DNA from: a plasmid | DNA: 42,977 bases | Sequence record: NZ_CP034394.1 | Direction: 5' to 3' (one strand) | Shown here: in pieces, positions 1,588-42,977 of the stretch | Position numbering within the stretch: the stretch's first letter is position 1 | How the letters are laid out: the number at the start of each line of letters is the position of its first letter | Program-made: the position numbers and the translations under genes | Notes under the pieces: model-generated | What the model was told of the DNA's origin: nothing | Seen by the model: the letters and a program-made list of their open reading frames with translations, nothing else | The model's database searches: none

Positions 1588-1608
1588 GCAATTGGTGAGG
1601 TTGGAAAA

Positions 1609-4034: not shown

Positions 4035-4035
4035 T

Positions 4036-8905: not shown

Positions 8906-8907
8906 CG

Positions 8908-13572: not shown

Positions 13573-14060
13573 GCCGTGCCCTCCCGAGCCGCCTTGACCA
13601 GCGCCGCCGCCATGTCGCGCTCAATCTGCGGACGCATTTCAGCCAGGGCAGACCGCAGGAACGAATGGGGCGGAAAGTCCACCTTGCGGGTGTGCGCCCG
13701 GACCTTGATCGTCATCGGAGCCTTGAGCGGCTTCCCGAAGGCCTGGGTAATGTGCCGCAGGCTTTCGCGCACGTTCTCGGTACCCTTGAAGCCGAATTCC
13801 AGGCGCCGCGCATATTCCACGTTGGTGCCGACGATGCCGGTGACAGAAGTCTGCTCCACGGTGACGCGCTGGTTGATGGAGCGGCGAAGCCGCCCCGTGC
13901 GCACGCGCAGGACGTCGTCGCTGAGCTTCTGCTTGACAGTGGTGAGCAGCTGCAGGGCCAGGCGCTGGACCGACTTCTCCAGGCCGGCCTGCATGGCGTC
14001 TGCCCGCCCTTCCATTTTGGCGATGAGTGAGGCATCGCCGACCAGCCATCCATTGATCAT
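13569..14060 (-). CDS. Head closure or neck protein (HK97 gp10 family-like).
   Basis: Position after the connector gene and its size. It shows ATGA coupling with its neighbours. Confidence 0.5.
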   Translation of the reverse strand: MINGWLVGDASLIAKMEGRADAMQAGLEKSVQRLALQLLTTVKQKLSDDVLRVRTGRLRRSINQRVTVEQTSVTGIVGTNVEYARRLEFGFKGTENVRESLRHITQAFGKPLKAPMTIKVRAHTRKVDFPPHSFLRSALAEMRPQIERDMAAALVKAAREGTA

Positions 14061-14626
14061 GATAGGGGCACCACCTTCTTGTAATTGCCCAAGACCGTCT
14101 GCACCGACGCGGGGAAGTCCGTGATAGTGAAGGCGATGGTCTCGCCGGCCAAGGTCTTGCTGGAATAGCCGACGCGACTCTTTTCGGAGTAGCGCAGCGC
14201 GATCACCTCGATGCAGGCCTGCTCGATCTCTGGCGGAACGCTCGCGAAGCCGGCGTGGTACGCCAGCACCACATTCGACTCACCGCGGCTGAAGCAGTAG
14301 CTGCGAAGACCGATCATGTAGTCGTCGAAGTAATAGCCTGGGCTGTGGATGTCAGGCGATGGGCCGATTGCCTGACCGTTGATGACGACGCTGTCCACCG
14401 CAGTGATGGGGTAGTTGGCGCACATCATCCTGCTCTTGCCCTTACCGTCGAGAGTTTCAACGTAGGGCGAGATCAGGAAGGTGCGATTCAGCCACGTCTG
14501 GACGTAACCACTGACAGCGGTGATAAGCCGCTGCAGCAGTTCATCGTCGTCCGTGCTCGAAGCATCCAAGCCCAGCCACTGCTTGACGTTGGCCAGTGTC
14601 GTCAGGTCGTTGGAACCGACTGGCAT
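14057..14626 (-). CDS. Head-tail connector or adaptor (phage gp6-like, Phage_connect_1).
   Basis: N-terminal LTTLANVKQWLGLD motif typical of gp6-like connectors. Confidence 0.55.
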   Translation of the reverse strand: MPVGSNDLTTLANVKQWLGLDASSTDDDELLQRLITAVSGYVQTWLNRTFLISPYVETLDGKGKSRMMCANYPITAVDSVVINGQAIGPSPDIHSPGYYFDDYMIGLRSYCFSRGESNVVLAYHAGFASVPPEIEQACIEVIALRYSEKSRVGYSSKTLAGETIAFTITDFPASVQTVLGNYKKVVPLS

Positions 14627-14629
14627 GGC

Positions 14630-15025
14630 TTACTGACCGCTCGGGGGGACCGACTGGCTGACGCCACCGCCACCTTCAGCACCAGCAGCAGCTGCTGCAG
14701 CGGCCTGCGCTTCGGCGTCCTTCTGAGCCTGTGCGGCACGCTCGGCTTCGGCAGCTGCAGCGGCCTGCGCTTCGGCGTCCTGGCGTGCCTGGTCGCCGGC
14801 CGATGGCTGCAGTTCCAGATTGCTCTTCACGCCGGCAGGCAGCAGCGGGTCATCGTTTTCTTCGGTGAGCTCGTCACCATCCGGGCTGGTGAAGCCCAGG
14901 CCCACCAGGTGCGCAACGTGTTCGGCCAGCACGGTGACCAGGCCCTTTACGACCTTATATTCCTCGCCCAGCACCGACACGGAACTGGCACCCTTGGGCG
15001 CCTTCAGTTTTACGGTATCGCTCAT
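14630..15025 (-). CDS. Hypothetical head-associated protein (possible decoration protein) with a duplicated Ala/Gln-rich segment. The start is trimmed to MSDTVKLKAPKG with an AAGGA SD.
   Basis: Lies between the capsid and connector genes. An internal 27-bp direct repeat (14695-14721 and 14755-14781) encodes AAQAQKDAEAQAAAAA twice. Confidence 0.4.
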   Translation of the reverse strand: MSDTVKLKAPKGASSVSVLGEEYKVVKGLVTVLAEHVAHLVGLGFTSPDGDELTEENDDPLLPAGVKSNLELQPSAGDQARQDAEAQAAAAAEAERAAQAQKDAEAQAAAAAAAGAEGGGGVSQSVPPSGQ

Positions 15026-15044
15026 GACTGCATCCTTGTTGAAA

Positions 15045-15082
15045 TTCGGAAGATGAAAGAACCGCCGGGCGAACCCGGCGGC
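15045..15082 (-). terminator. Terminator-like hairpin (CCGCCGGG-CGAA-CCCGGCGG followed by a U-rich tract) immediately downstream of the capsid gene.
   Basis: Read from the sequence. Confidence 0.4.
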
Positions 15083-15101
15083 CTGTGCTCGCGCGGCTGG
15101 A

Positions 15102-16619
15102 TCAGCCGTTGGCGATGTTGTTGAGCACGCCCATGGAGAACGGTGCGTAGTGCTGGAGCACGCCGTCCGCGTAGACGCCATATTCATACTTGCGGCTGCG
15201 CAGCGGCCATTCCAGCTGGTAGTAGTCCTGGCGCATCAGCATCTGCACGACGTTGGACACGTTGGACAGCGGATATGGCAGGCTCTCGGTGAAGAAGAAG
15301 ATGGTGCCGGCGGGGACGTTCGGATGCACCACCAGCGGCACCATCACGCCCATGACCTTGTTCAGGTATTCACCCACCTTCACGCCAGCCTGGATGGAAC
15401 CTAGGTTATCGGCGCTCACGTTCAAGCGCAGCAGCGGCGCACCGCCGTTGGCCACGATCTTCTTGGTGATGTTCACCAGCTCCTGCGCAGAGACGTAGAT
15501 CTTGGTCGGCGACAGGCGGTACTTGTTGTAGAAGTTGATGAACATCGCCTCGAACTCCACGATGCCGCCGGCGCCGTCCGAGGTGAGCGGAGTGCCGACG
15601 CCAGCGGTACCAGTGGGCTGGGACACCACTTGCGCATTGCTGCCCGGCTTGAAGGCTTGGTACAGCAGGCCGTCGAAGTCGATGGCCGAAGTGGAGCTAT
15701 CCACGGCGGCCAGCGACGCGGCGGTCTGGGTACCACTTGCAGCTGCGGTGATCAGCACGCTGTTGATCGAGGTGACCGCACCCAGGACTTCCGAGCCGGC
15801 AGCGCCCCAGAACCAGGCATAGCCGACGGCACCATTCACCACTGCGACGGTCCCGGTGATCGAGCCCGTCGCGCCGGTGGTGGCCACCGTGGCGCTGGCA
15901 GATTTCTGCGCGTTGCCGCCGCCGAAGGTGTCGGTGGAGCCGTCGGCGTTGGTGCGGCTAATCTGCCCAGGCACTGCCGCGCTGGCCAAGGTCAGCGATT
16001 GGCCGATGGAGCCGTTGTTCACGCCCACCATGTCCAGGTAGGCCTGCAGGCCCAGGGCCACGCAGATCACCGACCAGGTGCCGGCGGCCAGGGTGCCGCC
16101 AGTGGTCGAGCCCACCAGCGTGGGGGTCGGCGTGGTGCCCATGGCCACCGAGGTGTTGCCGCCCAGGATCATGCGCTCTTCCTGGATCATGGTGGCTTCC
16201 AGGGTGCTCTGCACCGCCAGCGCCTTCACGTCCTCGTAGTTCTTCGAAGCGTAGTTCGCTTCGAAGGTCACGTTGTTTTCCAGGCCGAAGCCACGGAAGG
16301 CGGCGAAATACTCGCTCTGCGCGTGATTGATGACGCCGCCGCGCTTACCTTCGGCCACGCCGGCACGCTGGTTGCTGACGTTGATGCTGGTGATTGCCTT
16401 CCAGTTGGCCTGGATGGCATAGCCGCCGCCGATGCGGGCGATGGAATTGCGCAGCGGGGTCAGGACCGGATACAGCTTCTTGGAAGGTGCTTCCAGGTTG
16501 TACGCCTGCAGGCCGGTGGTCGCGGTGCCAGGCTGCACAAAGGACTTGATGAGGTCGTCCGGGCTCATCTGCGCGGTTTTCAGCAGCACCAGGGTTTCTG
16601 CGGTGTTATTTGCACCCAT
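15102..16619 (-). CDS. Major capsid protein. The start is trimmed to MGANNTAETL with a GGAGA SD.
   Basis: About 505 aa and Gly/Ala/Thr-rich. It directly follows the prohead protease/scaffold gene, and hairpins flank it on both sides. Confidence 0.65.
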   Translation of the reverse strand: MGANNTAETLVLLKTAQMSPDDLIKSFVQPGTATTGLQAYNLEAPSKKLYPVLTPLRNSIARIGGGYAIQANWKAITSINVSNQRAGVAEGKRGGVINHAQSEYFAAFRGFGLENNVTFEANYASKNYEDVKALAVQSTLEATMIQEERMILGGNTSVAMGTTPTPTLVGSTTGGTLAAGTWSVICVALGLQAYLDMVGVNNGSIGQSLTLASAAVPGQISRTNADGSTDTFGGGNAQKSASATVATTGATGSITGTVAVVNGAVGYAWFWGAAGSEVLGAVTSINSVLITAAASGTQTAASLAAVDSSTSAIDFDGLLYQAFKPGSNAQVVSQPTGTAGVGTPLTSDGAGGIVEFEAMFINFYNKYRLSPTKIYVSAQELVNITKKIVANGGAPLLRLNVSADNLGSIQAGVKVGEYLNKVMGVMVPLVVHPNVPAGTIFFFTESLPYPLSNVSNVVQMLMRQDYYQLEWPLRSRKYEYGVYADGVLQHYAPFSMGVLNNIANG

Positions 16620-16631
16620 GTGAATCTCCAA

Positions 16632-16657
16632 AAGAAAAAGCCACCTCTTGGGTGGCG
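16632..16657 (-). terminator. Intrinsic terminator (GCCACC-TCTT-GGGTGGC with a U-run) between the protease/scaffold gene and the capsid gene.
   Basis: Same stem motif as the hairpins at 1571-1586 and 22799-22815. Confidence 0.55.
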
Positions 16658-16722
16658 TCAATAAGTTCGAGGAAAAGGGAGTGCCCGAATGTCCGGGCGG
16701 GAGTTAGGTTGATGGAATGGCG

Positions 16723-18024
16723 TTACACGCGGGCGAGAACGCCGCCGGTTTTGTGAGCCTGCTTGATGAGTGATGCAACTTCGTTTTGGCTGCCGTCGGC
16801 CATCTTGACCACGGCTTCCTCTTCCTTGGCGGGAGTCGTATTGCCTACGTCTTCGCCCTTCGTGATCGCCTTCAGGAGCGCCTTGCCGGGGGCGGGCTGA
16901 GCCTTCAGGGTGGCAAGCTGCTTCTGCATATCATCGCGGCTGGCGACCAGGCCCTTCACGAAATCGACCATGACCTGGCCCTCTTCGCAGCCTGCGTCAC
17001 GCAGCGCCTTGGTCAGGGCGTCATGCGCGGCGGCGACCTTGGCCAGCTCGCCCTTGGCCACCTTGTCGGTACCGTCGCCTTCGTCTTCGCCGTCGTCGGC
17101 GTCGTAGCCCACGGCCGCCATGTGGTCGTTGGCGTCCTGAATCGCCTTGTGAGCCTTGGCCAGCTTGTCCTTCGTGTCGGCGCTGAACTTCTTGCCGCCC
17201 TTGGCGATATCGCTACCGCGCGCGGCCAGCTCGATGACGTCCACCTCACCGGCGGCCGTCTTCAGGCACGCCAGCATTTCGGCGCATTCCTCGGCAGCCA
17301 TGTCCTGGAAGATCTTGATGCCCTGCGCCAGCCAGGCGCGCAGCGCGGCTGGCACCGGGCTGCCGTCGCCTTCGTAGGCGGCTTCATCTTGGGCGTCGCG
17401 GCAGATCCAGCCGAGGGACATCAGCGTGCCGGCGAAGTCCTGCACCGACCACATGCTCTTCTTGATCGGATCGGTGGTCGGCTGTGCCTTATCGGCCTTG
17501 GCCAGCTCGATCAGCCGCTCAGGGGTAATTTCGCCCTTGTTCAGCAGCTCGGCCAGCGTATCGATAGGGGTCGGCGCCGCATCATCGACACCGTCGGCCT
17601 TGAACATGGTGAAAACCGCTTCCGGATTGGCCGGGCGGTCCACCAGGGAGACTTCGACCAGGCGCAGGCCCTTGATAATCGACTTGTTCAGCTCATCGCG
17701 CTCGGTGGCCTTGCCGCCGATGGAGAAGCCCTTGTAGACATTGGCCTTCACCTTCTTGACGGCTTCACTGTCGACGACGTGAGCACCGAACCAGGTGCGG
17801 CCATCTTCTTGGACCTCGGCCTCGATGGCGGTGCCGGCGGCCTTCGCCTGGTGCATTTCGCGCACCGCACCGAATTTCATGTAGTCCGGCAGCGCGGCCT
17901 TCATGGCGTCGGCAGTGATGGTCTCGCCATCGGAGTCCACGACAGCGGAAGAGGCATAGCCCCATACCTTGATCGTGCCGTCATCCAGTTCCTCGGTCTT
18001 GCTAATTTCGCCGTAAAGTTTCAT
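16723..18024 (-). CDS. Prohead serine protease (HK97 / S78 family-like) fused to a C-terminal scaffold-like coiled-coil domain. The start is trimmed to MKLYGEISKTEELDDG.
   Basis: N-terminal VWGYASSAVVDSDGETI motif of HK97-type prohead proteases. The C-terminal half is long and Ala/Lys/Asp/Glu-rich. A GAGGAA SD lies upstream of the ATG. Confidence 0.65.
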   Translation of the reverse strand: MKLYGEISKTEELDDGTIKVWGYASSAVVDSDGETITADAMKAALPDYMKFGAVREMHQAKAAGTAIEAEVQEDGRTWFGAHVVDSEAVKKVKANVYKGFSIGGKATERDELNKSIIKGLRLVEVSLVDRPANPEAVFTMFKADGVDDAAPTPIDTLAELLNKGEITPERLIELAKADKAQPTTDPIKKSMWSVQDFAGTLMSLGWICRDAQDEAAYEGDGSPVPAALRAWLAQGIKIFQDMAAEECAEMLACLKTAAGEVDVIELAARGSDIAKGGKKFSADTKDKLAKAHKAIQDANDHMAAVGYDADDGEDEGDGTDKVAKGELAKVAAAHDALTKALRDAGCEEGQVMVDFVKGLVASRDDMQKQLATLKAQPAPGKALLKAITKGEDVGNTTPAKEEEAVVKMADGSQNEVASLIKQAHKTGGVLARV

Positions 18025-18025
18025 T

Positions 18026-20320
18026 TCATTCCTCATTGTTTGATTCGTCAGTGAGCACCGGCAGCACGTCGCAGCGGCACTTCGGGTGAAGCGGCGGCCC
18101 GTCGCCGCCATCGTTGGGGAAGTTGTCGTCGAGATCCACGACCTCGCCATCCAGCGCCTGGCAGTCATCGCAGCAGTCGGCGCTGGCCGCCCACTGCTTC
18201 TGGGCGACCTGGCCCGAGGCACGATAGCCCTCCATGTTGCCGGCCACGTCCGCGAAGGCCGTTTCCGTGCGCGCGATCATCTCGGCGCGTTCCGGCGAAA
18301 AGCCATGGCTGTCTTCGATTTCCTGCGCCAGCCGCTCATTGCTCCAGCCTTCATCGATGGCCTGCGCCACCGTGGAGTTGAGCAGTTCGCGCGTGGATTC
18401 GTCGATCTGCCAGGACTCATTCGGATTGGGCTGGAGCGAGCCGTCGGCATCGCGCTTCATGCCGACCCACTCGGCCGCCCTATCCTTCGCCCAGGCGACG
18501 GCCTTCTCGTTCGTGAGGTTGACGATATCCTCGTCATCCTTCAGCCCGATCTGCGCCAGCGCCGCCGCGCCGCCGTCCTTAGTGAGCGCTTCGATCAACG
18601 GCTCGATCTCGCCCACCAGCACGACCCAGTCCTCGAAATTCAGCCGTTCCAGGATCGTGCGGATCTGGGAGGCGTCAACCTTGCCGACGACCTCGTCCTT
18701 CGCCGCGACGACCTGGGCGGCGATCTTCGGCGCCTGGTCTTTCAGGAAAGCAGCGACCTTGTCCTGCAGCTGGGCCTGCAGCGCCATGATGGATTTGCGT
18801 TCCCGGTCAATAGACCGGACGGCTTTTTTTGCCTTGGTGACCGCCTCCTTGCCGGTCGGGATGCTCTTGTCGTCTGGTTTCTCGGCCGCGCCGTGGTCAT
18901 GGCCAGCGTGCGGGTCCTCATCATCAGCCTCTGGGTCCACCGCCGTGGCGCCGAACGGCATCGGTGGCGGTGGTGGGTTGGCGGCCTGCTCCAGCGCATC
19001 GACCAGACGGATGACTCCGCTGGCAGTGAAGATGACAGGCTGATCGCCGCCCTCCACTGGCTCAAGCCCGTCGTGGGCCCGGGCCTCATTGATGGTCAGC
19101 GAACCGTTGCGGATCTTCTTGTCCTGGATGTCGGCCTGTTCCACCAGGTCCAGCGCCTCTTCCTCATCCCATGCATATTCCAGGTCAGGGAACTGGAAGA
19201 CCTGCACCACCACGTAATCCATGAGGCCCTTCACCCAGTTCATGATCGGGATCAGCCCCTCCTGCAGGGATTGTTCGTGCGCGGTGCCGGCGGTGGCGCG
19301 GTTCTGCTGCTTGACGAAGGGCGTCGGCGCGATCGAGAAGGCGAAGCAGACCACCCGGGCCAGCCATTCGTCGTACTCATCCTTCAGTGACTGGCTCTTG
19401 GTCTCGATGTACTTGACTCCGTCCGGGATGAACTTCAGATGCCGGCGCTCAGCGGTGTCCCCCTCCAGCAACCAGTCCCAATACTGCTGAAACTGCTTGA
19501 TCTGGTCAGGATTCCAGTTCGCCGGCACACTGGCCAGCGCCTCGGGGATGTTGCCCTCGGTGTAATACTGGAGCTGGTGCAGCTGCCGGCGCAGAGCAAT
19601 GTTCACCGTCATGATGACCTGCTCCACGGGCGAGTAGCCGTAGACCTTGTGCGTGCGGACGTTGCGCGGCCGGTAGATCAGTTCCTCGCGGGTGTAGTCA
19701 ACAGCCGGGACGCCCTTGAGGATCTGCTGATAGGCGACCTCGGGCGGCTGGGGCGTGCGGCCGTGCTCATCGAGCACGCGCTTGATCGTCGCGCCGTCGA
19801 TGGGCTCCAGAGCAAAGACGTCGCCGCCCAGCGTCGGGCGCACGTACAGCGTCGGCGCGTCGGTGACGAACAGCTCTTCCAGCAGCATCCGCAACCACTC
19901 GTCCCATGTGTGCTCCTTGTCCGGCATGGCCAGGAAGTCGCTCACCATCTTGCAGCGGTCATCAGGCTTGGCCTTCTTGTCGCGCGGGCGAATCTTCCAC
20001 TTCATCTTCGCCATCTGGTCCTTGCGCGTTTCGATCACCAGGCGCATGACGTCGTAGCCGTCGGCCAGCGCGCGCATCTGCGCAAAGCTGATGGGCTCAT
20101 TCTGGCGCGGCGTGGTCTGGACGTTGAAGCCGACCGGATAGTCGAACTGGCGCCCGACGACGCTCGGCTGCTCCTGCTGGCCGACGACGGGAGCCAGCGG
20201 CTGCATCGGCCCAAACCAGGCACTCTGGCCGGTGACGGCGTAGCGCACGCCCTCCACCACACGGCGCAGCAAGCCAGGCTCAACGGGGGTCGCGCTGGCG
20301 GCTCCTTTGGGGATAGCCAT
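18026..20320 (-). CDS. Portal protein fused to a C-terminal Mu-F/SPP1 gp7-like head morphogenesis domain.
   Basis: Portal-sized N-terminal region. The C-terminus carries the Phage_Mu_F hallmark (…ERAEMIARTETA… HPKCRCD). Confidence 0.75.
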   Translation of the reverse strand: MAIPKGAASATPVEPGLLRRVVEGVRYAVTGQSAWFGPMQPLAPVVGQQEQPSVVGRQFDYPVGFNVQTTPRQNEPISFAQMRALADGYDVMRLVIETRKDQMAKMKWKIRPRDKKAKPDDRCKMVSDFLAMPDKEHTWDEWLRMLLEELFVTDAPTLYVRPTLGGDVFALEPIDGATIKRVLDEHGRTPQPPEVAYQQILKGVPAVDYTREELIYRPRNVRTHKVYGYSPVEQVIMTVNIALRRQLHQLQYYTEGNIPEALASVPANWNPDQIKQFQQYWDWLLEGDTAERRHLKFIPDGVKYIETKSQSLKDEYDEWLARVVCFAFSIAPTPFVKQQNRATAGTAHEQSLQEGLIPIMNWVKGLMDYVVVQVFQFPDLEYAWDEEEALDLVEQADIQDKKIRNGSLTINEARAHDGLEPVEGGDQPVIFTASGVIRLVDALEQAANPPPPPMPFGATAVDPEADDEDPHAGHDHGAAEKPDDKSIPTGKEAVTKAKKAVRSIDRERKSIMALQAQLQDKVAAFLKDQAPKIAAQVVAAKDEVVGKVDASQIRTILERLNFEDWVVLVGEIEPLIEALTKDGGAAALAQIGLKDDEDIVNLTNEKAVAWAKDRAAEWVGMKRDADGSLQPNPNESWQIDESTRELLNSTVAQAIDEGWSNERLAQEIEDSHGFSPERAEMIARTETAFADVAGNMEGYRASGQVAQKQWAASADCCDDCQALDGEVVDLDDNFPNDGGDGPPLHPKCRCDVLPVLTDESNNEE

Positions 20321-20326
20321 AGCGTG

Positions 20327-20620
20327 TTACACCGCTGCGCCGGTGACCGGATTGCGCCAGGCCTTGCCATCCCATTTGATGGTGAGGCCAAGACTGGTGT
20401 CCAGGAAGGTCTGGCCGACCTTGGTCGGTACCGGGCGGCTGGTGGTGGTGCCGACGCCGGTATCGGACGAGGCGGTCCAGCCGTTCGCCTTCATCACGTC
20501 GGCCACATGGTCGGGCACGTCCACGGTGCCGCCAGCGGCGGCGGAGTAGACGACGCCGTTGATGGTCATGGGGTTGTAAAAGCCGGATGCCGGCGGGGAA
20601 AGGCGGTGTGTCATTTTCAT
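20327..20620 (-). CDS. Hypothetical small protein between terL and the portal gene.
   Basis: ATGA overlap with the terL stop, and a non-biased protein sequence. Confidence 0.45.
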   Translation of the reverse strand: MKMTHRLSPPASGFYNPMTINGVVYSAAAGGTVDVPDHVADVMKANGWTASSDTGVGTTTSRPVPTKVGQTFLDTSLGLTIKWDGKAWRNPVTGAAV

Positions 20621-22053
20621 GGTCCTGTCTGAGTTGCGGCCTTCTGTGCGGCCAATTGAGCGAGGTAATCCAACATCCCGAAGTTGTTATCGATGAACAC
20701 CGAGAAGGCCCGGGACAAGCCATCTACCTGGTCGTCGTGCGAGCCGTTGGGGAACATGCGCATTTCATCGATCAGGGCCTGGTTCCAGGGCGCGCGCAGC
20801 ATCAGCACATTGCCCACGTTCACCTGCGAGGCGAAGGGCTCGGCCCGGGTGACCTTGTCGCCCGATTCAGGCGATGACGAGACCGAGAAGCCGGCCAGCT
20901 TGCGGGTGAGGTCCAGCACCTGGGTCTTGCCTGCCTGGCCGGGGTCCTGCGGGATGCTGATCTTGGTCCCGGTACCGTCGCGCTCGGCGGTGTTCTTCAT
21001 GACCTTGTCGCGGTCATCTGGAGCCATGCGATCACGCACCATGTCGGCGATGATGTAGCGGCCGTCGGGCAGCTTGCCAAGCTTCGGACCTGCCGTGTAG
21101 TCACCATCGATGGCGGCGGCCAAGTCCCAGGCGCGCACCCACTCGACGACGCCGGCAGGGATTGCGTCCACCGTGACGAGGTTATCCGGCTTGAAGACGC
21201 CTCCCTCGGCGGGAGACGGGCGCTGCTGGTACTGGCCGGCGAACATGTAGGGCGCGGCGTTCTGCATGATGCGCAGGGCCTCGACCGTGTGCTTCGCCGG
21301 CCACAGGGCGGTACCGTCCTCCTGCAGCGCCGGGATCACGACGTTTTCCCAGGTCTCGCCGTTGCCACCCTTCAGCAGCCAGCCGGCCAGGTCATCTTCG
21401 TGCAGGCGCTGCATGATCAAGATGATCGGCGTCTCCGGGCCGTTCTTCCGGCTCTCCAGGGTGTTCTGGAACCAGTCGATTACGCCCTTCCGGATCACTT
21501 CCGACCTGGCCTCATCAGCCTTGTGCGGGTCGTCGATGATGATTGCGCCGCCGAAGCCTGGGCGCTGCTTGCCCGCGCCGTAGCCGGTGATCGTGCCGCC
21601 GTCGCCGACGGCATAGACGCATCCGCCGGCAGTCGTCTTCCAGTCGTCCTTCGCCTTGCTGTCGTGCCGCAGCACCAGTTCGGGGAAGATTTCGTGGTAC
21701 GCCTGGGAAAGCACCAGGTCGCGGGTCTGGAAAGCGTTCTTGGATGCCAGCTTGCCGCTGTAGCTGGTATGGATGAATTCCGAGTCGGGGACCTTACCCA
21801 GCGCCCAGGCCATGAAGTTGATGACGGCCAGCTCGGTCTTCGAGTAGCGCGGCGGCACGTTGATAATCAGGCGCTTGCACTCGCCGCGAAACACCCGCAT
21901 GAGGGCATCGCAGATGATCTTGTGATGCGGTGCGCGGTTCCAGATGAAGCCCTTGCGCTGCACGAACATCCAGCGCGAGAACTCGTAGAGATCGGCTCGG
22001 GCCAGCTGGGTAGCCACGAAGCGCTCTTCGGGGCTGTATGTGCGCATGGTCAA
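20617..22053 (-). CDS. terL: Terminase large subunit.
   Basis: ATPase motifs (…INVPPRYSKTE…), and RNaseH-like C-terminal nuclease motifs. ATGA overlap with terS. Confidence 0.9.
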   Translation of the reverse strand: MTMRTYSPEERFVATQLARADLYEFSRWMFVQRKGFIWNRAPHHKIICDALMRVFRGECKRLIINVPPRYSKTELAVINFMAWALGKVPDSEFIHTSYSGKLASKNAFQTRDLVLSQAYHEIFPELVLRHDSKAKDDWKTTAGGCVYAVGDGGTITGYGAGKQRPGFGGAIIIDDPHKADEARSEVIRKGVIDWFQNTLESRKNGPETPIILIMQRLHEDDLAGWLLKGGNGETWENVVIPALQEDGTALWPAKHTVEALRIMQNAAPYMFAGQYQQRPSPAEGGVFKPDNLVTVDAIPAGVVEWVRAWDLAAAIDGDYTAGPKLGKLPDGRYIIADMVRDRMAPDDRDKVMKNTAERDGTGTKISIPQDPGQAGKTQVLDLTRKLAGFSVSSSPESGDKVTRAEPFASQVNVGNVLMLRAPWNQALIDEMRMFPNGSHDDQVDGLSRAFSVFIDNNFGMLDYLAQLAAQKAATQTGP

Positions 22054-22769
22054 TACTCGTTCATGAGGGTCCGGGCGATTTCCTGGAACTGCTCAGGGGT
22101 CATCGTGGTGGTGACTGTCCGTTGCTGGATGGGACCGCCGCCCGGGGCGCTCAACTCCACCCGCTTGTTGAACATGCCGATGTGCTCGCCGACCTGCCGC
22201 AGCGCGACCTGCTGGTCCAGCAGCTTGGCCTCCAGGCCGTCCTTGCCGCGCTTCACGCCGGCGTAGATCGCCAGCGCCGCCGGGCTCAGGTTGCGGGTAT
22301 CGCTCACCAGCAGGCGACCGTGGCCATCGCCGAAGCATTCGGGGCAGTCCTTGCGCGGCGGGCGCTTCGGGTTGAAGCCGAAGCCACCGGCGCAGCTGGG
22401 CGTTTCCTTCTTCGCTTCGCGGGCCTCTTCCTGCTTGCGCTGGTATTCGCCCTTCGTCCACTGGTACTGGTGATCCTTGCCGTAGCAGTAGCGGCAGCAC
22501 TCGCGGACGTACTGGACAATCTCATTGGGGTCGGCGGTGGCCTGCTGCCACAGGCGGCTCAGCACCATGGAAGTGCTGATCTGCGTGCGCTCGGACAGGG
22601 CCGTCTTCGCCTCTTCCACCAGGGCCTTGATTTCAGGCTTCGCCAGCATCTGGCTGGCCTGGACCTTGGCGGTCTTGGCGCTGTAGCCGGCGCGCACTGC
22701 GGCCTTCGTGCCGTTCAGATCGACGAGGTATTCCTCGACGAAACGGCGGATCTTCGGCGTGATTTGCAT
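22050..22769 (-). CDS. terS: Terminase small subunit (Terminase_2-like N-terminus) with an internal Cys-rich zinc-finger-like insertion.
   Basis: N-terminal FVEEYLVDLNGTKAAVRAGYSAKTA motif. Internal CCRYCYG … CPECFGDG. Confidence 0.75.
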   Translation of the reverse strand: MQITPKIRRFVEEYLVDLNGTKAAVRAGYSAKTAKVQASQMLAKPEIKALVEEAKTALSERTQISTSMVLSRLWQQATADPNEIVQYVRECCRYCYGKDHQYQWTKGEYQRKQEEAREAKKETPSCAGGFGFNPKRPPRKDCPECFGDGHGRLLVSDTRNLSPAALAIYAGVKRGKDGLEAKLLDQQVALRQVGEHIGMFNKRVELSAPGGGPIQQRTVTTTMTPEQFQEIARTLMNEY

Positions 22770-23642: not shown

Positions 23643-24131
23643 TCAAGCGGCGATGTCTCCGAACAGCCCAGCCTGCGGCTGCTCCACGCCCAGCGGCGTG
23701 ATGGTGAGCACCACGCGCGCGCCCTCGGCGTCAGGTTCCATGCGCTCGGCCACGATCCGGCGCACCCACTTGTCGTCCTCGATGGCCACGCCCTTGAGGG
23801 CGTCCAGCAACACCTTGTTGGCGTTGTCCAGGTCGATGCAGCGGACGGTGTCGTCCCAGGATGCGCCCGCCTGGCGCTGGCGCTTCTGCCAGTCCTGCGG
23901 CCGGGCCGGATAGAGGCGAACGTCGATCTGCACGCGGCCGGTGATCGGCTCGCGCACGCCTGCGCCGCGCACCTTCCAGCCCACGGCGGTCTTGTAGGCC
24001 TCGGCCTCCTTGGTAACGTAGGTGATGGCCATGGCTGGCTTGCCGGTGCTGCGATTGGCCGGGATGATGCGCGTGGCCCAGTAGGCGTTCGCGGACACGG
24101 GATACGGGAGGATCAGGGTGATGGGCGTCAT
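23643..24131 (-). CDS. rusA: RusA-family Holliday junction resolvase.
   Basis: Motifs LPYPVSANAYW and IDLDNANKVLLDAL. Confidence 0.85.
   Translation of the reverse strand: MTPITLILPYPVSANAYWATRIIPANRSTGKPAMAITYVTKEAEAYKTAVGWKVRGAGVREPITGRVQIDVRLYPARPQDWQKRQRQAGASWDDTVRCIDLDNANKVLLDALKGVAIEDDKWVRRIVAERMEPDAEGARVVLTITPLGVEQPQAGLFGDIAA

Positions 24132-26665: not shown

Positions 26666-26669
<4 letters not shown>
26232..26669 (-). CDS. Hypothetical protein with an N-terminal Cys/His cluster (CAAYGCPC…WYCTYH).
   Basis: ATGA overlap with the replication gene stop. Confidence 0.45.
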
Positions 26670-27822
<1,153 letters not shown>

Positions 27823-27826
<4 letters not shown>

Positions 27827-28896
27827 GCTGCTACCTGTACTGTGGCCAGAAGCGGTGCGTCTGCCTGGATCCGTCGGCGCGCCATTTCTGCGTATTGAGG
27901 GTTGAGCTCGATGCCGATGCAATGACGCTGCAACTGATCGGAGGCCAGGCCCGTGGTGCCGGCGCCAAAAAATGGATCGAGCACCACGCCGCCAGCTGGG
28001 CAGCCTGCCTTGATGCAGATCATCGGGATCTCGAGTGGGAAGGTGGCGAAGTGCGCTTCCTTGAAAGATTGCGTGGCAATGCTCCAGACGCTGCGCTTGT
28101 TTCGCACGCTGGGCATGATGGCCATAGCCTGGTCGAAACTGCCGTTGTTCTTGGTGCCGCTGCCAGCTTCCGCCAGCTTGCGCACGCGGCCGCGCTGGCG
28201 CTGTTCGGCGTCGGTACCGTGGCCCCAACCTACCCCGCGCCCTACCGCCTTCATCGGGCCATTGGTCTTGGCGCCGCCGTTGGCGCGCTCGCTACCAATC
28301 TGGTTTTGCACATCCTGAGACAGGCGGCTATGGGTATTCGGCGATACCGGCTCGGAGATTGCATCCTGGTCGAAGAAATACCGCTCGGACTTCGTAAGCA
28401 GGAAAATGTATTCGTGGGACTTGGTGCAGCGGTCGCGCACGCTCTCCGGCATCGGGTTGGGCTTGCTCCATACGATGTCTTGGCGCACCCACCATCCCGA
28501 GTCCTGCAAGGCGATGGCCAGCCGGTGCGGCATCATCATCAGGTCCTTTGGCTTGAGGCCGGACTGCGACTTACCATGAATAGGCATACCGTTTCCATGG
28601 GTAGCCTGTTTCGGCCAGCGCGCATCATCCCGGGCCCCGCCGCCACCATGGGAATAGCTGTCGCCCATGTTGATCCAGCAGGTTCCATCGGAACGCAGCA
28701 CACGGCGCACCTCTTCAAAGACCGCCACCAGCTTGGCAATGAACTCTGCCGGCGAGGCCTCCAATCCGATCTGTCCATCCACGCCGTAATCGCGCAGTGC
28801 CCAATATGGCGGAGAGGTAACCACGCAGTGAACCGACTCATCCGGCAAAGAACGAAGGATCTCGAGCGAATCACCGACGTGAATCGTCACTGTCAT
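27823..28896 (-). CDS. DNA methyltransferase of the N4-cytosine/N6-adenine beta-class (SPPY catalytic motif, C-terminal FxGxG AdoMet motif).
   Basis: Motifs VVTSPPYW and DPFFGAGTT. The order of motif IV before motif I indicates the beta class. Confidence 0.85.
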
Positions 28897-29372
28897 ACAG
28901 CCTCCCGTGCCTGGCCCAGCGCTTCCTTGATCTGGAAATCCTGGATCAGGTCGCGCGCGTAGCCCGCCGACATTTCGAGAGTGGCGGCGCGGATGTGCTT
29001 CAGCGAATCGCGCGCGGCGGCGGTCTGGTGGGCGTCGACGGGCATGCCATATTCCAGCGCCTTGCCCAGCTTGCGCAGGCCATCAAGGTGCAGGTCCAGG
29101 CCGAAGCGGATTTCGTGGATCTCGAATGCTTCCACCACACCGGCGATCGCGACGGAACTCTCGTACCAGTGGCCATCGTTGTGGTCACGGAAGACCGCCA
29201 CGCCCTTCTGCCCGGTCACGTCAATGGTCCCCTCCTGTTCCAGCTGGTCCAGGATCGAGGTCAGCGGATTCATCAAGGCCGCGACCTTCCATGGCTGCAG
29301 CTTCAGCTTGATGTTCTCGCCGGCCAGCCGCCCGGGCTTGTACGCCTTGGCGCGCTTCTTCTGGGCGGTCAT
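28893..29372 (-). CDS. Hypothetical protein, 159 aa.
   Basis: ATGA-coupled to neighbouring genes in the early-left operon. Confidence 0.45.
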   Translation of the reverse strand: MTAQKKRAKAYKPGRLAGENIKLKLQPWKVAALMNPLTSILDQLEQEGTIDVTGQKGVAVFRDHNDGHWYESSVAIAGVVEAFEIHEIRFGLDLHLDGLRKLGKALEYGMPVDAHQTAAARDSLKHIRAATLEMSAGYARDLIQDFQIKEALGQAREAV

Positions 29373-29710
29373 GCAGATACCTTGTCCTTCTCGCGCATCC
29401 GATCCTTCTCCAGATCGGCCTGCAGGAACTTGAAGGCGCCCAGCTTGTAGAAGCGCAGCTCTTCCTGGGTGCAGACGATGGAATCGGCGGAAACCACCTT
29501 CAGGTCCAGCGCGGCCAGCAGGAGGGCCAGATCATCGAGGTGTTCGGTTGCCATGCGGCTGACCGTGCTGCCATGCACACCAATGCAAGCAGCTGCACGG
29601 GCGCGCGTGACCTCGGAAAGGCGCTGCACCACCACCGCGGCGATCTGTGCAGCATTCGTGCGGGTGTTTTCCTGCACGTCGGACGACACTTTGTCTGCGG
29701 CGGTACTCAT
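29369..29710 (-). CDS. CII-like transcriptional regulator (HTH).
   Basis: HTH segment AAACIGVHGSTVSRM followed by LLLAALDLKVV, paralleling the lambda CII layout. It lies directly downstream of the cro-like gene. Confidence 0.5.
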   Translation of the reverse strand: MSTAADKVSSDVQENTRTNAAQIAAVVVQRLSEVTRARAAACIGVHGSTVSRMATEHLDDLALLLAALDLKVVSADSIVCTQEELRFYKLGAFKFLQADLEKDRMREKDKVSA

Positions 29711-29988
29711 TGATGGGCCTCGGCTTCAGTAGGAAGTTGACCAGTCGAACGGACGTACTGCCAATCGACCTCGGAGTTGAGCTCTTCGCACTTCACCTCG
29801 CCGTTCGAGATTTTCTCGATCTCGGGGCAGTGCTTCGGCGGAACCCGGCGGCCGTCCTCCTTCCACTGATCGACGGCCGCCCGGGTGACGCCCAGCTTCC
29901 GAGCCAGCGCGGAGACCGTTTTCAGGTCGGAGACGCGAATTGCTTTATCAATCGGGTGTTCCATGAAAAGTCCATTTGAGAGTGACAT
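29707..29988 (-). CDS. Cro-like HTH repressor (YdaS/Cro family). An alternative start exists at 29964 (MEHPIDK).
   Basis: Motif VSALARKLGVTRAAVDQW. It is divergent from the cI-like gene across the operator region. Confidence 0.6.
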   Translation of the reverse strand: MSLSNGLFMEHPIDKAIRVSDLKTVSALARKLGVTRAAVDQWKEDGRRVPPKHCPEIEKISNGEVKCEELNSEVDWQYVRSTGQLPTEAEAHQ

Positions 29989-29994
29989 CTACGC

Positions 29995-30060
29995 GAAGGA
30001 TAGAATATCTATCGTTACGACGCAAGAAAATCTAGCCATTAAAAAGATAGGTTTTCTTTA
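29995..30060. promoter_or_regulatory. Immunity-switch operator and promoter region between cro-like and cI-like. It contains the perfect inverted repeat GATAGA-ATA-TCTATC (29999-30013), a second inverted repeat AGAAAATCTAGC…GATAGGTTTTCT (30025-30057), and candidate -10 hexamers TAGAAT (plus strand) and TATTCT (minus strand).
   Basis: Read from the sequence. The same half-site recurs at 31035-31095. Confidence 0.55.
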
Positions 30061-30070
30061 CGATGTCGCA

Positions 30071-30439
30071 ATGGAAATACATGAGTGGGTGGCGTCGGCC
30101 AGGAAAAAGGCCAAGCTGACGCAGGATCAGATGGCGGACGCGCTGGGGGTGACGCGCGGGAATGTCTCTGCCTGGGAAAACAACAGGCATGAGCCGAGCC
30201 TGTCCCAACTGATGAAGATTGGGGCCATCTGCCACGCTGATATGTCGGCGCTGTTCGCCGGCACCTCGGTGGCCACTCCGATCAGCGTGAAGCAGGCGGC
30301 AGGCTGGCCGTTCAAGATCGACTATCAGCTGTATGCGACCCTGCCGGCTGACGAGAAGGAACGGTTGGACGACGACGTGACGCACTTCATTGAGCGCTGG
30401 CACGCAAGGAACCCGGCTAAAAGTGCGAAAACGGGATAA
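30071..30439 (+). CDS. CI-like repressor with an XRE-family HTH and no S24 peptidase domain. The start is trimmed to MEIHEWVASARKKAKLTQDQMADALGV.
   Basis: HTH_XRE motif. It lies divergent to cro. The upstream part of the track ORF overlaps cro. The possible -10 TACGAT at 30059-64 would make the transcript leaderless. Confidence 0.65.
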   Translation: MEIHEWVASARKKAKLTQDQMADALGVTRGNVSAWENNRHEPSLSQLMKIGAICHADMSALFAGTSVATPISVKQAAGWPFKIDYQLYATLPADEKERLDDDVTHFIERWHARNPAKSAKTG

Positions 30440-30563
30440 GCCACCGGACCTGGCGCTTCCGAGCGCAAAGATCTATGCTTTCCCTGTGCCGCCCAGAAGG
30501 ACTGGGCCGCCAGACCCTGAAACGGTCGTATGAATCAAATCAAATATAAGAAAAGGACATACC

Positions 30564-30971
30564 GTGAAGAAGACAGCAGTTTCCCTATTTCTCTGTGCCG
30601 CCGCCCTTCTCTCAGGCTGCGCGAGCACCGGCAATCAAGCGCTGGCCAGCGCCGACCAGGCGGCAATCGATCAGCACCTGGTGAAAGGCAAAACTACCAA
30701 GGCCGACGTCCTGGCTTATCTGGGCCCGGCCAATTCCGTGAGCACCAGCAGCGCGGCCGCAGGTGAAACCTGGGTCTACGTCTACGCCAGCTCGCAGGCC
30801 AAGGGCGCGACGTTCATCCCCGTGGTGGGCCTCTTCGCCGGCGGCGCCACCGGGAACTCCAAGGTGCTATCCGTCTCGTTCGACCAGCAAGGCGTCGTTT
30901 CCCGCTACAGCTTCTCGTCGTCCAACACCGATACCCGCCTGGGCGCGCCCAGCACCACCACAACGAACTGA
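30564..30971 (+). CDS. Outer-membrane lipoprotein of the BamE/SmpA_OmlA fold, with a signal peptide plus lipobox LLSGC. It is a candidate lysogenic-conversion or superinfection-exclusion moron.
   Basis: GTG start with an AAAAGGA SD. The motif …KADVLAYLGPANSVSTSS…GETWVYVY…VSFDQQGVVSRYSF matches the BamE-like pattern. A strong terminator follows the gene. Confidence 0.6.
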   Translation: MKKTAVSLFLCAAALLSGCASTGNQALASADQAAIDQHLVKGKTTKADVLAYLGPANSVSTSSAAAGETWVYVYASSQAKGATFIPVVGLFAGGATGNSKVLSVSFDQQGVVSRYSFSSSNTDTRLGAPSTTTTN

Positions 30972-30990
30972 CCCGCGTCAGTCCTCGAAG

Positions 30991-31014
30991 AAACCCGCTG
31001 TGGCGGGTTTTTTT
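30991..31014 (+). terminator. Rho-independent terminator (AAACCCGC-TGTG-GCGGGTTT followed by a T7 run) ending the cI-lipoprotein unit.
   Basis: Read from the sequence. Confidence 0.75.
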
Positions 31015-31034
31015 ACGTCCAGCGTTTCGCCGAC

Positions 31035-31097
31035 GATACAAAATCTATCTTTTTACCGATAGATTATCTTGCCTTTTGGCGATAGAGAATCTATCAT
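31035..31097. promoter_or_regulatory. Tripartite operator in front of the rightward early operon. The three sites are GATACA-AAA-TCTATC (31035-49), GATAGA-TTA-TCTTGC (31058-72) and GATAGA-GAA-TCTATC (31081-95). They are spaced about 23 bp apart and overlap a candidate promoter TTGCCT-17-TATCAT (31069-31097).
   Basis: Read from the sequence. The half-site is the same as in the cI/cro intergenic region. Confidence 0.55.
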
Positions 31098-31142
31098 CGC
31101 TCCAACGGTTCACCAAAAGAGCCGACCAAAACGGAGCCTGCG

Positions 31143-31433
31143 ATGTCCCAAACCCGCACCAATATCGACGTCACGCCCTGGCGTTTCGAGCGCATCAACC
31201 CTGATGACAAGAAATGGACCGCCTGCGAAATACTGGAAGGCGACCGTTTCGTCGCAACCCACGTATGCACTGAAGAAGATGCTGCGCGAATCGTCTGCGC
31301 AGCGAACACCCATGCCGATCTTGTGGCAGCCCTGCGGCTGGCCGTCGAAACCATCGAAACGCACCAAGCGTTCTGGTCCCGCGCTGACCTGGAGTCCATG
31401 AAGGCCGTCCTGGCCAAGGCCGGTGCAGCATGA
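31143..31433 (+). CDS. Hypothetical protein, the first gene of the rightward early operon.
   Basis: ACGGAG SD upstream of the ATG. Confidence 0.5.
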   Translation: MSQTRTNIDVTPWRFERINPDDKKWTACEILEGDRFVATHVCTEEDAARIVCAANTHADLVAALRLAVETIETHQAFWSRADLESMKAVLAKAGAA

Positions 31434-31561
31434 ACGGCGTCTCCCTCCTATTCCTCGCCCTGGTGTCGGTCTTCGCATTCAGCGAACTGCCGCGCATCCC
31501 CCGTCTGGTCTTCGTGGGCGTTTGCGTCCTGATGGCCGCTTACTTTGGAGTCCCAGCATGA
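31430..31561 (+). CDS. Predicted small hydrophobic membrane protein of about 43 aa (MNGVSLLFLALVSVFAFSELPRIPRLVFVGVCVLMAAYFGVPA). It is not in the ORF track because of its size.
   Basis: ATGA overlap with the upstream stop and a hydrophobic sequence. The coordinates carry about 2 nt of uncertainty. Confidence 0.3.
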   Translation: MNGVSLLFLALVSVFAFSELPRIPRLVFVGVCVLMAAYFGVPA

Positions 31562-41459: not shown

Positions 41460-41687
41460 ATGCAAGCAATCGCACAACCGATCACCTTGACTGAAGAAGA
41501 GGTGGTGGCCATCACCGGCTACCATCGCGCCGCCTTCCAGCTGCGCCGCCTGGAGGAAATGGGAATTCCGGCCCATCGCCGCCCCGATAATACCGTCATG
41601 GTCCTGCGCGTCTATGCCACCACCAGGCCGGCCGCCGAAGCGGCGCCGGAAAAACAAGAACCGAAACTCCGCCTGATTCGCAAATGA
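41460..41687 (+). CDS. DUF4224-like small protein, a candidate excisionase or recombination directionality factor.
   Basis: Motif LTEEEVVAITGYHRAAFQLRRLEEMGIP. It lies immediately upstream of, and overlapping, the int start. Confidence 0.5.
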   Translation: MQAIAQPITLTEEEVVAITGYHRAAFQLRRLEEMGIPAHRRPDNTVMVLRVYATTRPAAEAAPEKQEPKLRLIRK

Positions 41688-42847
41688 ACCGATCCCGCAA
41701 AACCGGCAAGGGGCTGCCCCGCCGCGTGTACCAGAAGCACGGCGCCTATTTCTTCGTGCCGGCCGAGCCTATGCTCGACCCCAAGGATGGCAAGATCAAA
41801 CGATGGATTCCACTGGCCAAGATAGCCGAGGGCGAGGCGGCCATGCTGCTGGCGCTGGGCAACCTGCTGCAAGACGACGCCCTGAACGTCGAAAGCATGC
41901 GGTACGTCTGCGCCGAGTTCAAGAAGCACAAGCTAAACCGCTATACCGACGAGACCAAGGCCACCTATGGCCGGTACCTGGACACCATCGGCGAGGCGTT
42001 CGCCGATTTCTCGGCGCGCCAGGTCACGACCAAGAGCTGGGCGCAGTTCCTGCGCCAGAACTTCAGTGCCCATCCGAACACCGCGCAGAAATACACTGCG
42101 CTGGCGCGCAAGCTCTTCAAATTCGTAATCTCAGAACTGGGCCTGCGCGAAGACAATCCCATCGACCAGATCGAGCTTGAGGACTACGAGACCACGCGCC
42201 GCCTGATCCTGCCGACCCATGAGCAGGTCCAGGCCATCCGCCAGGCCGGCATGATAAGCAAGGTGCGATCGGACACGGGCAAGGCGCTCCCCACCGCCAG
42301 CGGGCCAATGTTCGCCTGCCTGGTGGATGCAGCGTACTTGCTGTGGGCGCGCGCCATAGACGTGCGCACCCTGAAGGAATCGCAGATCGATGGCGAAATC
42401 GGCGGCTACATCCGCCTGAAGCCCTCGAAGACCCTGAAAACGAGCGGTAAATCGGTGGACATCCTGATCACGCCGGCGATCTGGGACGTGATCCAGCGCG
42501 CCCGCGCCATCAAGAAGGAATACAAGGTCCACGGCAAACCCTTGATCACGGGCTTCGTGTTCCCGACCCGGAAAGGGACTGAGTACAGCAAGAATGGATT
42601 GTTTTCGATGTGGGACCGCGCCAGGGATCGCCTGGGCATCGGCAAGGACTCGCCCCCGGAAGAGCGGATTCAATTTAGAGATTTGCGCGCGCTGGGCGCT
42701 ACTGATGCAGCTCGAACGAAGCTGCCGATAGAACAGATCCAGACCCGCCTGGCGCACACGTCGCCGCAGACATCTGAAATCTATATCAAGGAAGTGATTG
42801 CCCAGGTCTCGGAGATTGACCTCCCGCTACCCTGGCCCACAAAGTAA
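41684..42847 (+). CDS. int: Tyrosine-type site-specific recombinase (phage integrase).
   Basis: C-terminal catalytic region …FRDLRALGATD… LAHTSPQTSEIYIKE (R…H..R…Y). It lies adjacent to the tRNA and the element end. Confidence 0.9.
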   Translation: MNRSRKTGKGLPRRVYQKHGAYFFVPAEPMLDPKDGKIKRWIPLAKIAEGEAAMLLALGNLLQDDALNVESMRYVCAEFKKHKLNRYTDETKATYGRYLDTIGEAFADFSARQVTTKSWAQFLRQNFSAHPNTAQKYTALARKLFKFVISELGLREDNPIDQIELEDYETTRRLILPTHEQVQAIRQAGMISKVRSDTGKALPTASGPMFACLVDAAYLLWARAIDVRTLKESQIDGEIGGYIRLKPSKTLKTSGKSVDILITPAIWDVIQRARAIKKEYKVHGKPLITGFVFPTRKGTEYSKNGLFSMWDRARDRLGIGKDSPPEERIQFRDLRALGATDAARTKLPIEQIQTRLAHTSPQTSEIYIKEVIAQVSEIDLPLPWPTK

Positions 42848-42890
42848 AACAGCACTGATATTAGACAGGTGTCTAATATACAGTGCTGTT
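42848..42890. repeat. Near-perfect 20-bp inverted repeat AACAGCACTGATATTAGACA-GG-TGTCTAATAT(A)CAGTGCTGTT, immediately after the int stop. It contains the right copy of the 14-bp direct repeat (42870-42883).
   Basis: Read from the sequence. It could be the int terminator stem and/or core or arm-type Int binding sites. Confidence 0.6.
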
Positions 42891-42927
42891 CTTCTGTACA
42901 GCTTTCGCTGTAAGTGCTTGATTCTAT

Positions 42928-42977
42928 TGGTCGGGACGGTGTGATTCGAACACACGACCCCTTGCACCCCATGCAAG
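42928..42977 (-). tRNA. tRNA-Pro (anticodon GGG), a 3'-partial view in which the gene continues past the window end. The window contains the anticodon arm, the variable loop, the T-arm (TTCGAAT loop), the acceptor 3' strand, the discriminator A and CCA.
   Basis: The reverse complement folds into the canonical cloverleaf elements. The anticodon loop is ATGGGGT with G37. Confidence 0.55.

Follow-up and report, generated by a model that had tools for sequence, protein, structure and literature searches.

A predicted lambda-like immunity switch with six operators and a repressor lacking a peptidase domain in a Herbaspirillum seropedicae prophage

What kind of regulatory switch is formed by a short repressor gene, a divergent cro-like gene and a palindrome, GATAGA-N3-TCTATC, that recurs in front of a further early operon? 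This question is raised by positions 29,995 to 31,097 of a 42,977-bp stretch of DNA (sequence record NZ_CP034394.1; the whole stretch analysed is referred to here as the window). Our analysis favours the explanation that a complete lambdoid prophage of Herbaspirillum seropedicae has its immunity switch here, organized like that of lambda; taken as a whole, we give this best explanation a probability of about 0.82. The two divergent genes and the six proposed operators, three between these genes (O_R) and three at the early promoter on the cI side (O_L), are the following.

29707..29964, minus strand: Cro-like protein of 85 amino acids (aa) (Pfam YdaS_toxin, 1e-20; P22_Cro, 2e-8)
30071..30439, plus strand: cI-like repressor of 122 aa (Pfam HTH_3, AlphaFold2 (AF2) model, starts of homologues)
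29999..30013: O_R1, GATAGAATATCTATC, no mismatch to GATAGA-N3-TCTATC; its outer half plus two nucleotides holds the -10 of the cro promoter
30022..30036: O_R2, GCAAGAAAATCTAGC, three mismatches; its centre lies at -42 from the cI ATG, and it is in register in relatives
30046..30060: O_R3, GATAGGTTTTCTTTA, three mismatches; it overlaps the -10 of the proposed cI maintenance promoter
31035..31049: O_L3, GATACAAAATCTATC, one mismatch; found by pattern search and present in relatives
31058..31072: O_L2, GATAGATTATCTTGC, two mismatches; its right half bears the -35 of the PL-like promoter
31081..31095: O_L1, GATAGAGAATCTATC, no mismatch; its right half plus AT forms the -10 of the PL-like promoter

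The perfect inverted repeat that the original prediction had placed between the cro-like and cI-like starts is O_R1, without a single mismatch. A second, degenerate repeat, which it had drawn across 30025-30057, is also there, and is better read as two 15-mers, O_R2 and O_R3. The 106-bp gap between the divergent genes therefore reads as a multipartite operator of three in-register 15-mers, spaced 23 and 24 bp apart, with centres at -65, -42 and -18 from the cI ATG. A second operator of shared sequence is found at the early promoter on the cI side, which points in the same direction as cI. All three copies of the half-site that had been claimed for 31035-31095 could be placed there at start-to-start spacings of 23 and 23 bp, just one of them being perfect. 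Furthermore, a repeat search returned 29999-30044 as a 46-nt, 74% inverted copy of 31050-31095, which indicates that the cro-side and PL cassettes are mirror images of each other.

These sites stand out clearly from the background. In a pattern search of the window, only four sites matched GATAGA-N3-TCTATC with at most two mismatches, and the two perfect sites compare with 6.5e-4 expected from the base composition (62% GC). When up to three mismatches were allowed, 12 sites were retrieved, 6 of which fall in the two clusters, versus 5.1 ± 2.2 sites in shuffled sequences, none of 100 shuffles reaching 12. Similarly, about 700 kb of related loci yielded one or two stray sites (at most one mismatch) outside both regulatory positions.

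In order to relate the motif to the proteins encoded beside it, we compared the window with 88 related prophage loci from Burkholderiales, recovered with the helix-turn-helix (HTH) domain of the repressor as the query. In the syntenic relatives (L001, L002/L026, L004, L005/L027 and L006), the repressors of which are 79-43% identical to that of the window (79% in L001, about 61% in L002/L026, about 52% in L005/L027 and 49% in L006), the 15-mers are kept while the 8-9-bp spacers between them drift. Mean column conservation over nine lineages was 0.84-0.87 in the operators (0.87 in O_R1) versus 0.57 in the spacers, and the O_R3 core AGATTTTCTT was kept in eight of the nine R-type loci compared, the window itself having AGGTTTTCTT. 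In particular, a site (at most two mismatches) precedes the cI ATG at a distance of exactly 72 bp in each of the 21 loci with the recognition helix T-R-G-N-V-S. Where the helix reads T-K-x-N-V-S, there are at least three mismatches at -72 (the two exceptions lie at other offsets) and TATAGA-N3-TCTAGA/TCTATA stands at that position instead, arginine at the start of the helix going with the outer G:C pair of the operator and lysine with the outer T:A pair (L007-L088).

An even sharper replacement was observed in Herbaspirillum sp. WKF16 (locus L003), which has the same gene order, an unrelated repressor HTH and the motif TTACAAC/GTTGTAA, both in the cro/cI gap (4895-5000) and at the PL site (6370-6460). 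The last 44 residues of its repressor are nevertheless identical to those of the window at 37 of 44 positions (hand count of the alignment), which places the recombination boundary inside the repressor gene, at the linker. Covariation with the helix across the 88 loci and replacement in the heteroimmune L003 support the proposal that the motif is recognized within the repressor/Cro immunity system, and that the operator sequence would belong to the immunity specificity of this repressor/Cro pair.

The transcription signals and the genes that complete this layout are listed below.

29997..30025, minus strand: PR-like promoter of cro, cII and replication genes, with -35 TTGCGT (30025-30020), a 17-bp spacer and -10 TATCCT (30002-29997)
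30059..30064, plus strand: PRM-like -10 TACGAT, ending 6 nt before the cI ATG, with a poor -35 region
31069..31097, plus strand: PL-like promoter TTGCCT-17-TATCAT (9/12 consensus matches), driving the early operon through the integrase gene
30987..31014, plus strand: intrinsic terminator of the cI-lipoprotein unit (12-bp stem plus U-run, -17.4 kcal/mol, z = -2.3)
31099..31137, plus strand: stem-loop in the PL transcript leader, in which GCUCC at the 5' end is paired with GGAGC, the ribosome-binding site of the first open reading frame (ORF)
29369..29710, minus strand: CII-like regulator of 113 aa (Pfam Phage_CII, 3e-7)
30564..30971, plus strand: BamE-like lipoprotein with lipobox LLSGC (Pfam BamE, 2e-5)
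plus strand, in this order: PL-side early genes, comprising small ORFs, a PD-(D/E)XK exonuclease, RecT, an SbcC-like protein, a large methyltransferase and the integrase

This arrangement, in which cro leads away to the left of O_R and cI, the lipoprotein gene, the terminator and O_L/PL follow to the right and lead on to the recombination genes and int, agrees with the two-locus layout of lambda OR/OL type that the original prediction had proposed. Its promoter overlapping the operator triplet was recovered as the sole sigma-70-like match in 29600-31400 (1.8 kb) when nine of 12 consensus matches were set as the threshold, and its terminator just before the triplet folds as listed. Position 12 is where both PL hexamers begin, the -35 in O_L2 and the -10 in O_L1; on the other side, the left half of O_R2, read on the minus strand (TCTTGC), contains the -35 of the cro promoter. 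With regard to cI, no Shine-Dalgarno sequence precedes the ATG at 30071, and a TAC..T hexamer is found 6-7 nt before the cI start in every related locus inspected, whatever the C-terminal domain of the repressor. Based on the position of TACGAT and the missing Shine-Dalgarno sequence, the cI mRNA is predicted to be leaderless.

The start at 30071 is backed by homologues beginning M-E/D-I-x-x-W, and some relatives have in-frame stops 6-12 codons upstream of it. An alternative gene model from NCBI (29963-30439, plus strand) gives a repressor of 158 aa, the start ATG of which shares bases with the cro start codon (CATG, 29962-29965). We rejected this model, which would read through all three operators, in favour of 30071, as indicated by the homologues and the upstream stops. 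In most GC-rich relatives, the open frame extends upstream from the cI ATG over tens to hundreds of codons, into antisense cro, and the apparent peptide conservation in it ('QENL...FLYDVAMEI') coincides with the DNA of O_R2 and O_R3.

The scheme that we infer for repressor binding, promoter start points, activation, dimerization and the induction route is a conventional one up to its last step. In the lysogen, repressor dimers would occupy O1 and O2 at both loci, and this occupancy would occlude the -10 and -35 of both lytic promoters because the outer halves of O1 and O2 contain these hexamers. A dimer at O_R2 (-42) would be placed to activate the weak, leaderless cI promoter, and at high repressor concentration the occupancy of O_R3 would shut this promoter; with +1 at 30071 and a poor -35, the operator centres fit activation from O_R2 and autorepression at O_R3. 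Presumably, these sites also serve Cro, with the order of preference reversed. Since successive operators carry the -35 and the -10 at an identical position, their 23-bp period amounts to 6 + 17 bp, and the fixed O1-O2 spacing, being explained by promoter geometry, lends no support to the cooperative binding or looping that the original prediction had envisaged. The spacing between O_L3 and O_L2 varies (23 bp in the window and in L001, 21 bp in L002/L026, 20 bp in L005/L027), which argues against a strict helical phasing of the third site. The OR-OL distance, 1.08 kb in the window, ranges from about 0.8 to 2.1 kb in related loci.

The likeness to lambda extends to the gene order, with cro, cII and replication genes on one side and cI, an accessory gene, a terminator, PL recombination genes and int on the other. 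Both systems have two tripartite operators that share a palindrome and lie in mirror orientation, lytic promoters with their -35 and -10 inside O2 and O1, and a CII homologue. The positions of OR1, OR2 and OR3 of lambda relative to PRM are almost identical to the -65, -42 and -18 of the window; the lambda cI mRNA is leaderless, and roughly 81-82 bp separate the PR and PRM starts, as predicted for the window. The differences concern the operators, which are 15 bp long (6-N3-6) in the window and 17 bp in lambda, the OR-OL distance, which is 2.3 kb in lambda, and above all the proteins. The repressor of 122 aa has no S24 domain and hence should lack RecA-stimulated autocleavage, and there is no known basis in it for tetramer/octamer cooperativity in the style of lambda; furthermore, Cro is of the YdaS/P22_Cro type and no N-like antiterminator was recognized.

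The repressor consists of an HTH_3 domain (residues 3-61), a linker (62-84), a 'WPF' motif with a short and a long helix (79-113) and a basic tail. Its AF2 monomer model comprises a confident five-helix head (3-61), a disordered stretch (62-84) and helices at 85-113 with predicted local distance difference test (pLDDT) values of 71-84. Pfam returned HTH families only for this protein, and its C-terminal 40 residues were modelled as helices with no S24 domain of the autocleavable LexA/lambda-CI type, to which a Ser-Lys dyad and an Ala-Gly cleavage site belong; the same Pfam search detects S24 in the homologues L017 and L008. These results bear out the earlier description of a short XRE-type repressor without an S24 peptidase domain. 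In Foldseek searches, the model retrieved HTH repressors only (P22 C2, SinR, DdrO, ImmR, P2 C and the SPC32H repressor), in matches that depend on the HTH (TM score about 0.45, root-mean-square deviation 7-13 Å over the full length). No PDB sequence matched the C-terminal tail, a word-index search of the C-terminal domain with plain letters came back empty, and phmmer, run exhaustively against 1.84 billion representatives, yielded five real matches, all small repressors of about 107-135 aa, so that the tail of the window is a rare one.

A comparison across loci revealed that the same DNA-reading module is also joined to a cleavage domain. In L017 and 12 other Burkholderia-type loci, the repressor has 213 aa, is 54% identical over residues 1-54 and carries Pfam Peptidase_S24, and these loci have the same operators at -72, at -49 and at the PL site. 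In total, 57 of 89 loci have long repressors of the S24 type and 27 of 89 have short 'WPF' tails. The short 'WPF + helix' tail of about 45 residues thus takes the place of the S24 domain on a conserved HTH/operator chassis, and most likely it gives dimerization only. The 37 of 44 tail residues that the window and L003 keep on unrelated heads led us to consider a shared antirepressor. A broader proposal, by which the WPF tail is an exchangeable alternative to S24 that defines lambdoid repressors inactivated otherwise, through a shared trans-acting antirepressor or an SOS-independent signal, strikes us as doubtful.

Several observations weigh against a lambda-like immunity switch of the kind described, some of them concerning its sites and specificity and others, taken up below, its induction. 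The three-mismatch level of O_R2 and O_R3 occurs six times elsewhere in the window by chance, and the status of these two sites is accordingly drawn from register and conservation. The PR-like promoter, with 7/12 matches to consensus, falls below the scan threshold and was read from the sequence; relatives have better hexamers at the same place, e.g., TTGACT-17-TATACT in L007. Furthermore, the related loci are phylogenetically dependent, the R-type amounting to roughly 8-9 lineages, and the Cro helix (GVTRAAV.QW versus GVTKGAV.QW) tracks the same Arg/Lys split as the cI helix, L004 and L005 excepted. The HTH of the window Cro, which reads LGVTRAAVDQW and resembles the cI helix, belongs to this pattern, so that covariation cannot separate cI from Cro and would fit equally well if the palindromes were operators for Cro alone, the HTH_3 protein binding elsewhere or not being the maintenance repressor. 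We regard this as very improbable. The cI HTH travels with the operators even when the tail switches between the S24 and the short form; L004 and L005 retain the operators alongside a Cro helix without the arginine (GVTPAAAKQW), and their cI still reads T-R-G-N-V-S; and the -42/-18 geometry around the cI start is that of cI-type autoregulation. To our knowledge, cI and Cro share operators in every characterized lambdoid switch, which we also counted against a role in Cro binding alone. An equally slim chance is left to the repeats being duplicated promoter cassettes, with paralogous PR and PL, or binding sites of a host factor, for instance IHF or Fis. Such cassettes would show what is seen here, a -35 within O2 and a -10 within O1, 74% mirror copies and a period of 6 + 17 bp, and part of the cassette likeness is indeed promoter likeness. 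However, a promoter has no need for the perfect 6-N3-6 palindromes of the strongest sites, and O_R3 and O_L3 lie outside the PR and PL hexamers yet keep the motif; moreover, the motif changes with the phage HTH (GATAGA, TATAGA, TTACAAC), unlike a host-factor site, and the remaining 41 kb of the prophage lack it.

With regard to induction, a repressor without an S24 domain could not autocleave and another route would have to be used, most plausibly a protein antirepressor or a protease that is not recognizable by homology. The prediction of an induction mechanism other than RecA-mediated autocleavage therefore holds insofar as it follows from the missing S24 domain, but no alternative machinery came to light. 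PHROGs searches of about 40 ORFs covering the whole prophage gave no match to an antirepressor family and no ImmA/IrrE-type (M78) protease, the only protease match being the head protease; the neighbours of cI are cro and the BamE-like lipoprotein gene, with no adjacent COG2856/M78 metalloprotease gene. No promoter-associated LexA box was found in the window. CTGT-N8-ACAG with at most one mismatch is rarer than chance there (6 matches versus 12 expected), and its sole perfect copy, CTGTTCTTCTGTACAG at 42886-42901, lies in the attachment (att) region between the int stop and a tRNA fragment, partly overlapping an 18-bp hairpin (42849-42887), with no downstream gene evident. Similarly, no gene family accompanies the WPF domain across loci within ±4 kb, the maximum being 10 of 27. 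The prophage may simply be non-inducible by SOS. Small ORFs without an assigned function remain in it.

A variant of our explanation with the same architecture, to which we attribute a lower yet appreciable likelihood, would make the prophage SOS-inducible through a small, unrecognized antirepressor docking on the WPF/helix domain; its gene, as part of the same proposal, would lie elsewhere in the genome, in another prophage or among unannotated small ORFs, as in Gifsy. For this there is documented precedent in non-cleavable lambdoid repressors with LexA-controlled trans-acting antirepressors (PMC3121763), and the heteroimmune L003 keeps the tail as a shared antirepressor target might be expected to. 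In a distant WPF-type prophage from Paenalcaligenes (L013, 6450-6840), a terminator is followed by a TTGACT-(CTGTGTTTTTATACAG)-TAATAT promoter that contains a perfect CTGT-N8-ACAG and precedes an acidic ORF of 63 aa (6645-6836), which has the look of an SOS-controlled small antirepressor. This element is, however, absent from the close relatives L015 and L047. Against the variant also stand the negative PHROGs, LexA-box and co-occurrence results described above, the only perfect LexA box having no gene to control. We retain the lambda-like switch with a repressor that would be inactivated by a route other than autocleavage as the preferred explanation.

Among described systems, the Gifsy-1/-2/-3 repressors GfoR, GfhR and GtgR of Salmonella are lambdoid, short and uncleaved on induction (Lemire et al. 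2011, PMC3121763). They are inactivated by small antirepressors under LexA control, which have their genes outside the immunity region and can act across heteroimmune phages (PMC3121763). In both cases, heteroimmune phages share a part of the repressor other than its DNA-reading head, and modules are shuffled between phages; the tail shared by the window and L003 would, by analogy, fit this picture. As for the non-cleavable repressors of the Gifsy or coliphage 186 Tum type, the window repressor lacks a cleavage domain. In contrast, a tblastn search of 50,697 phage records with cI detected no sequence relationship to Gifsy, and no LexA-controlled antirepressor gene was found in the window prophage.

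The uncharacterized S24 repressors of Burkholderia and Paraburkholderia prophages (213 aa in L017, L053 and others; 291 aa in L008 and others), 54% identical to the window repressor over residues 1-54, share with the window the TAC..T-N6-7-ATG arrangement before the cI start and, in the 213-aa group, GATAGA-N3-TCTATC at the same offsets at OR and PL. They differ in having a LexA-like peptidase domain, for which classical RecA-dependent induction is to be expected, and in a locus where PL follows cI directly, with no accessory gene. The top Foldseek matches, SinR/SinI, ImmR/ImmA, DdrO/IrrE and Rep/Ant of Salmonella phage SPC32H (PDB 1b0n, 7t8i, 6jq1, 5d4z), are XRE repressors under the control of a partner, and in them, too, an HTH head is joined through a linker to a small helical tail; the likeness rests on the HTH, and neither an M78 protease gene nor a SinI-like gene lies beside the repressor gene of the window.

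No phage relative was retrieved when 29300-31500 was compared by megablast with 50,697 phage records, and tblastn of cI against the same records returned only Aggregatibacter phage S1249 (41%, in the HTH alone), which suggests that no characterized phage relative exists among these records. A search of the literature on Herbaspirillum prophage repressors found nothing relevant. Judged by these comparisons, the window switch appears to add a new, uncharacterized member to the lambdoid immunity type, one in which the repressor is a non-cleavable variant, and to come from a likewise uncharacterized family of prophages in plant-associated and soil Burkholderiales (Herbaspirillum, Collimonas, Burkholderia, Paraburkholderia and others). 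It leaves the picture of how a lambdoid switch functions unchanged, the design being ordinary except for a repressor without a self-cleaving domain. What it offers is a switch map of six operators and three predicted promoters, with a correlation of specificity down to one residue and one base pair, and a DNA-binding/operator module joined to either a self-cleaving or a non-cleaving tail, i.e., a natural experiment on the swapping of induction chemistry between phages.

The remaining gene content was assigned by PHROG and Pfam scans of about 50 ORFs, which recovered a whole siphovirus-type prophage in the 42,977-bp window.

158-1591, minus strand: lysis genes
1974-11490, minus strand: tail genes
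14057-22769, minus strand: head, portal and terminase genes
23643-24131, minus strand: RusA
26666-28896, minus strand: DUF1376 replication protein and methyltransferase
41684-42847, plus strand: integrase

At the right end of the window, the sequence at 42929-42977 (minus strand) looks like a tRNA gene reduced to its 3' half, with T-arm GGTCGTGTGTTCGAATCACACC and a ...CCGACCA end; ARAGORN reported no tRNA there because the gene is partial. TGTCTAATAT and its complement are repeated at both window ends (42853-42880; 46-62 and 108-122), a recurrence that would resemble integrase arm sites. Taken together, the tRNA 3' half and the repeats at both ends suggest that the window equals the prophage, probably spanning it from att to att and broken at the att repeat.

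The slot between cI and the terminator, occupied on the same strand by the BamE/SmpA-like lipoprotein gene as it is by rexAB in lambda, holds other, unrelated genes in L002, L003, L004 and L005, which marks it as an accessory (moron) site; the lipoprotein gene is a candidate for a lysogenic-conversion or exclusion gene. Right after the cI stop there is a conserved stretch, (A)ATCTATGC(T/G)TTTCC, at 30468-30483 (plus strand) in the window, at about 6355-6375 in L001 and at about 3094-3110 in L002, and as AATCTATCAGTTTCC at about 5417-5432 in the heteroimmune L003. The stretch looks like one operator half-site (TCTAT) as well as a -10 (TATGCT), and might serve as a promoter of the accessory gene.

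The leader stem-loop of the PL transcript, which precedes the first ORF of the operon (start at 31143), recurs in shape with a different sequence in L002 (4737-4777), where the inner hairpin is GUUCG-GAAAA-CGAAC, and in L017 (4786-4816). Possible roles are those of an element acting on translation or stability, or of a nut/boxB-like site; a search for a second, nut-like copy of the hairpin in the window found none. Finally, Gly-Gln dipeptides follow one another (GQGQGQ..., at least nine repeats) in the DUF1376 replication protein; this run, encoded by a short tandem DNA repeat at about 27150-27250 (minus strand), may be a length-variable linker.

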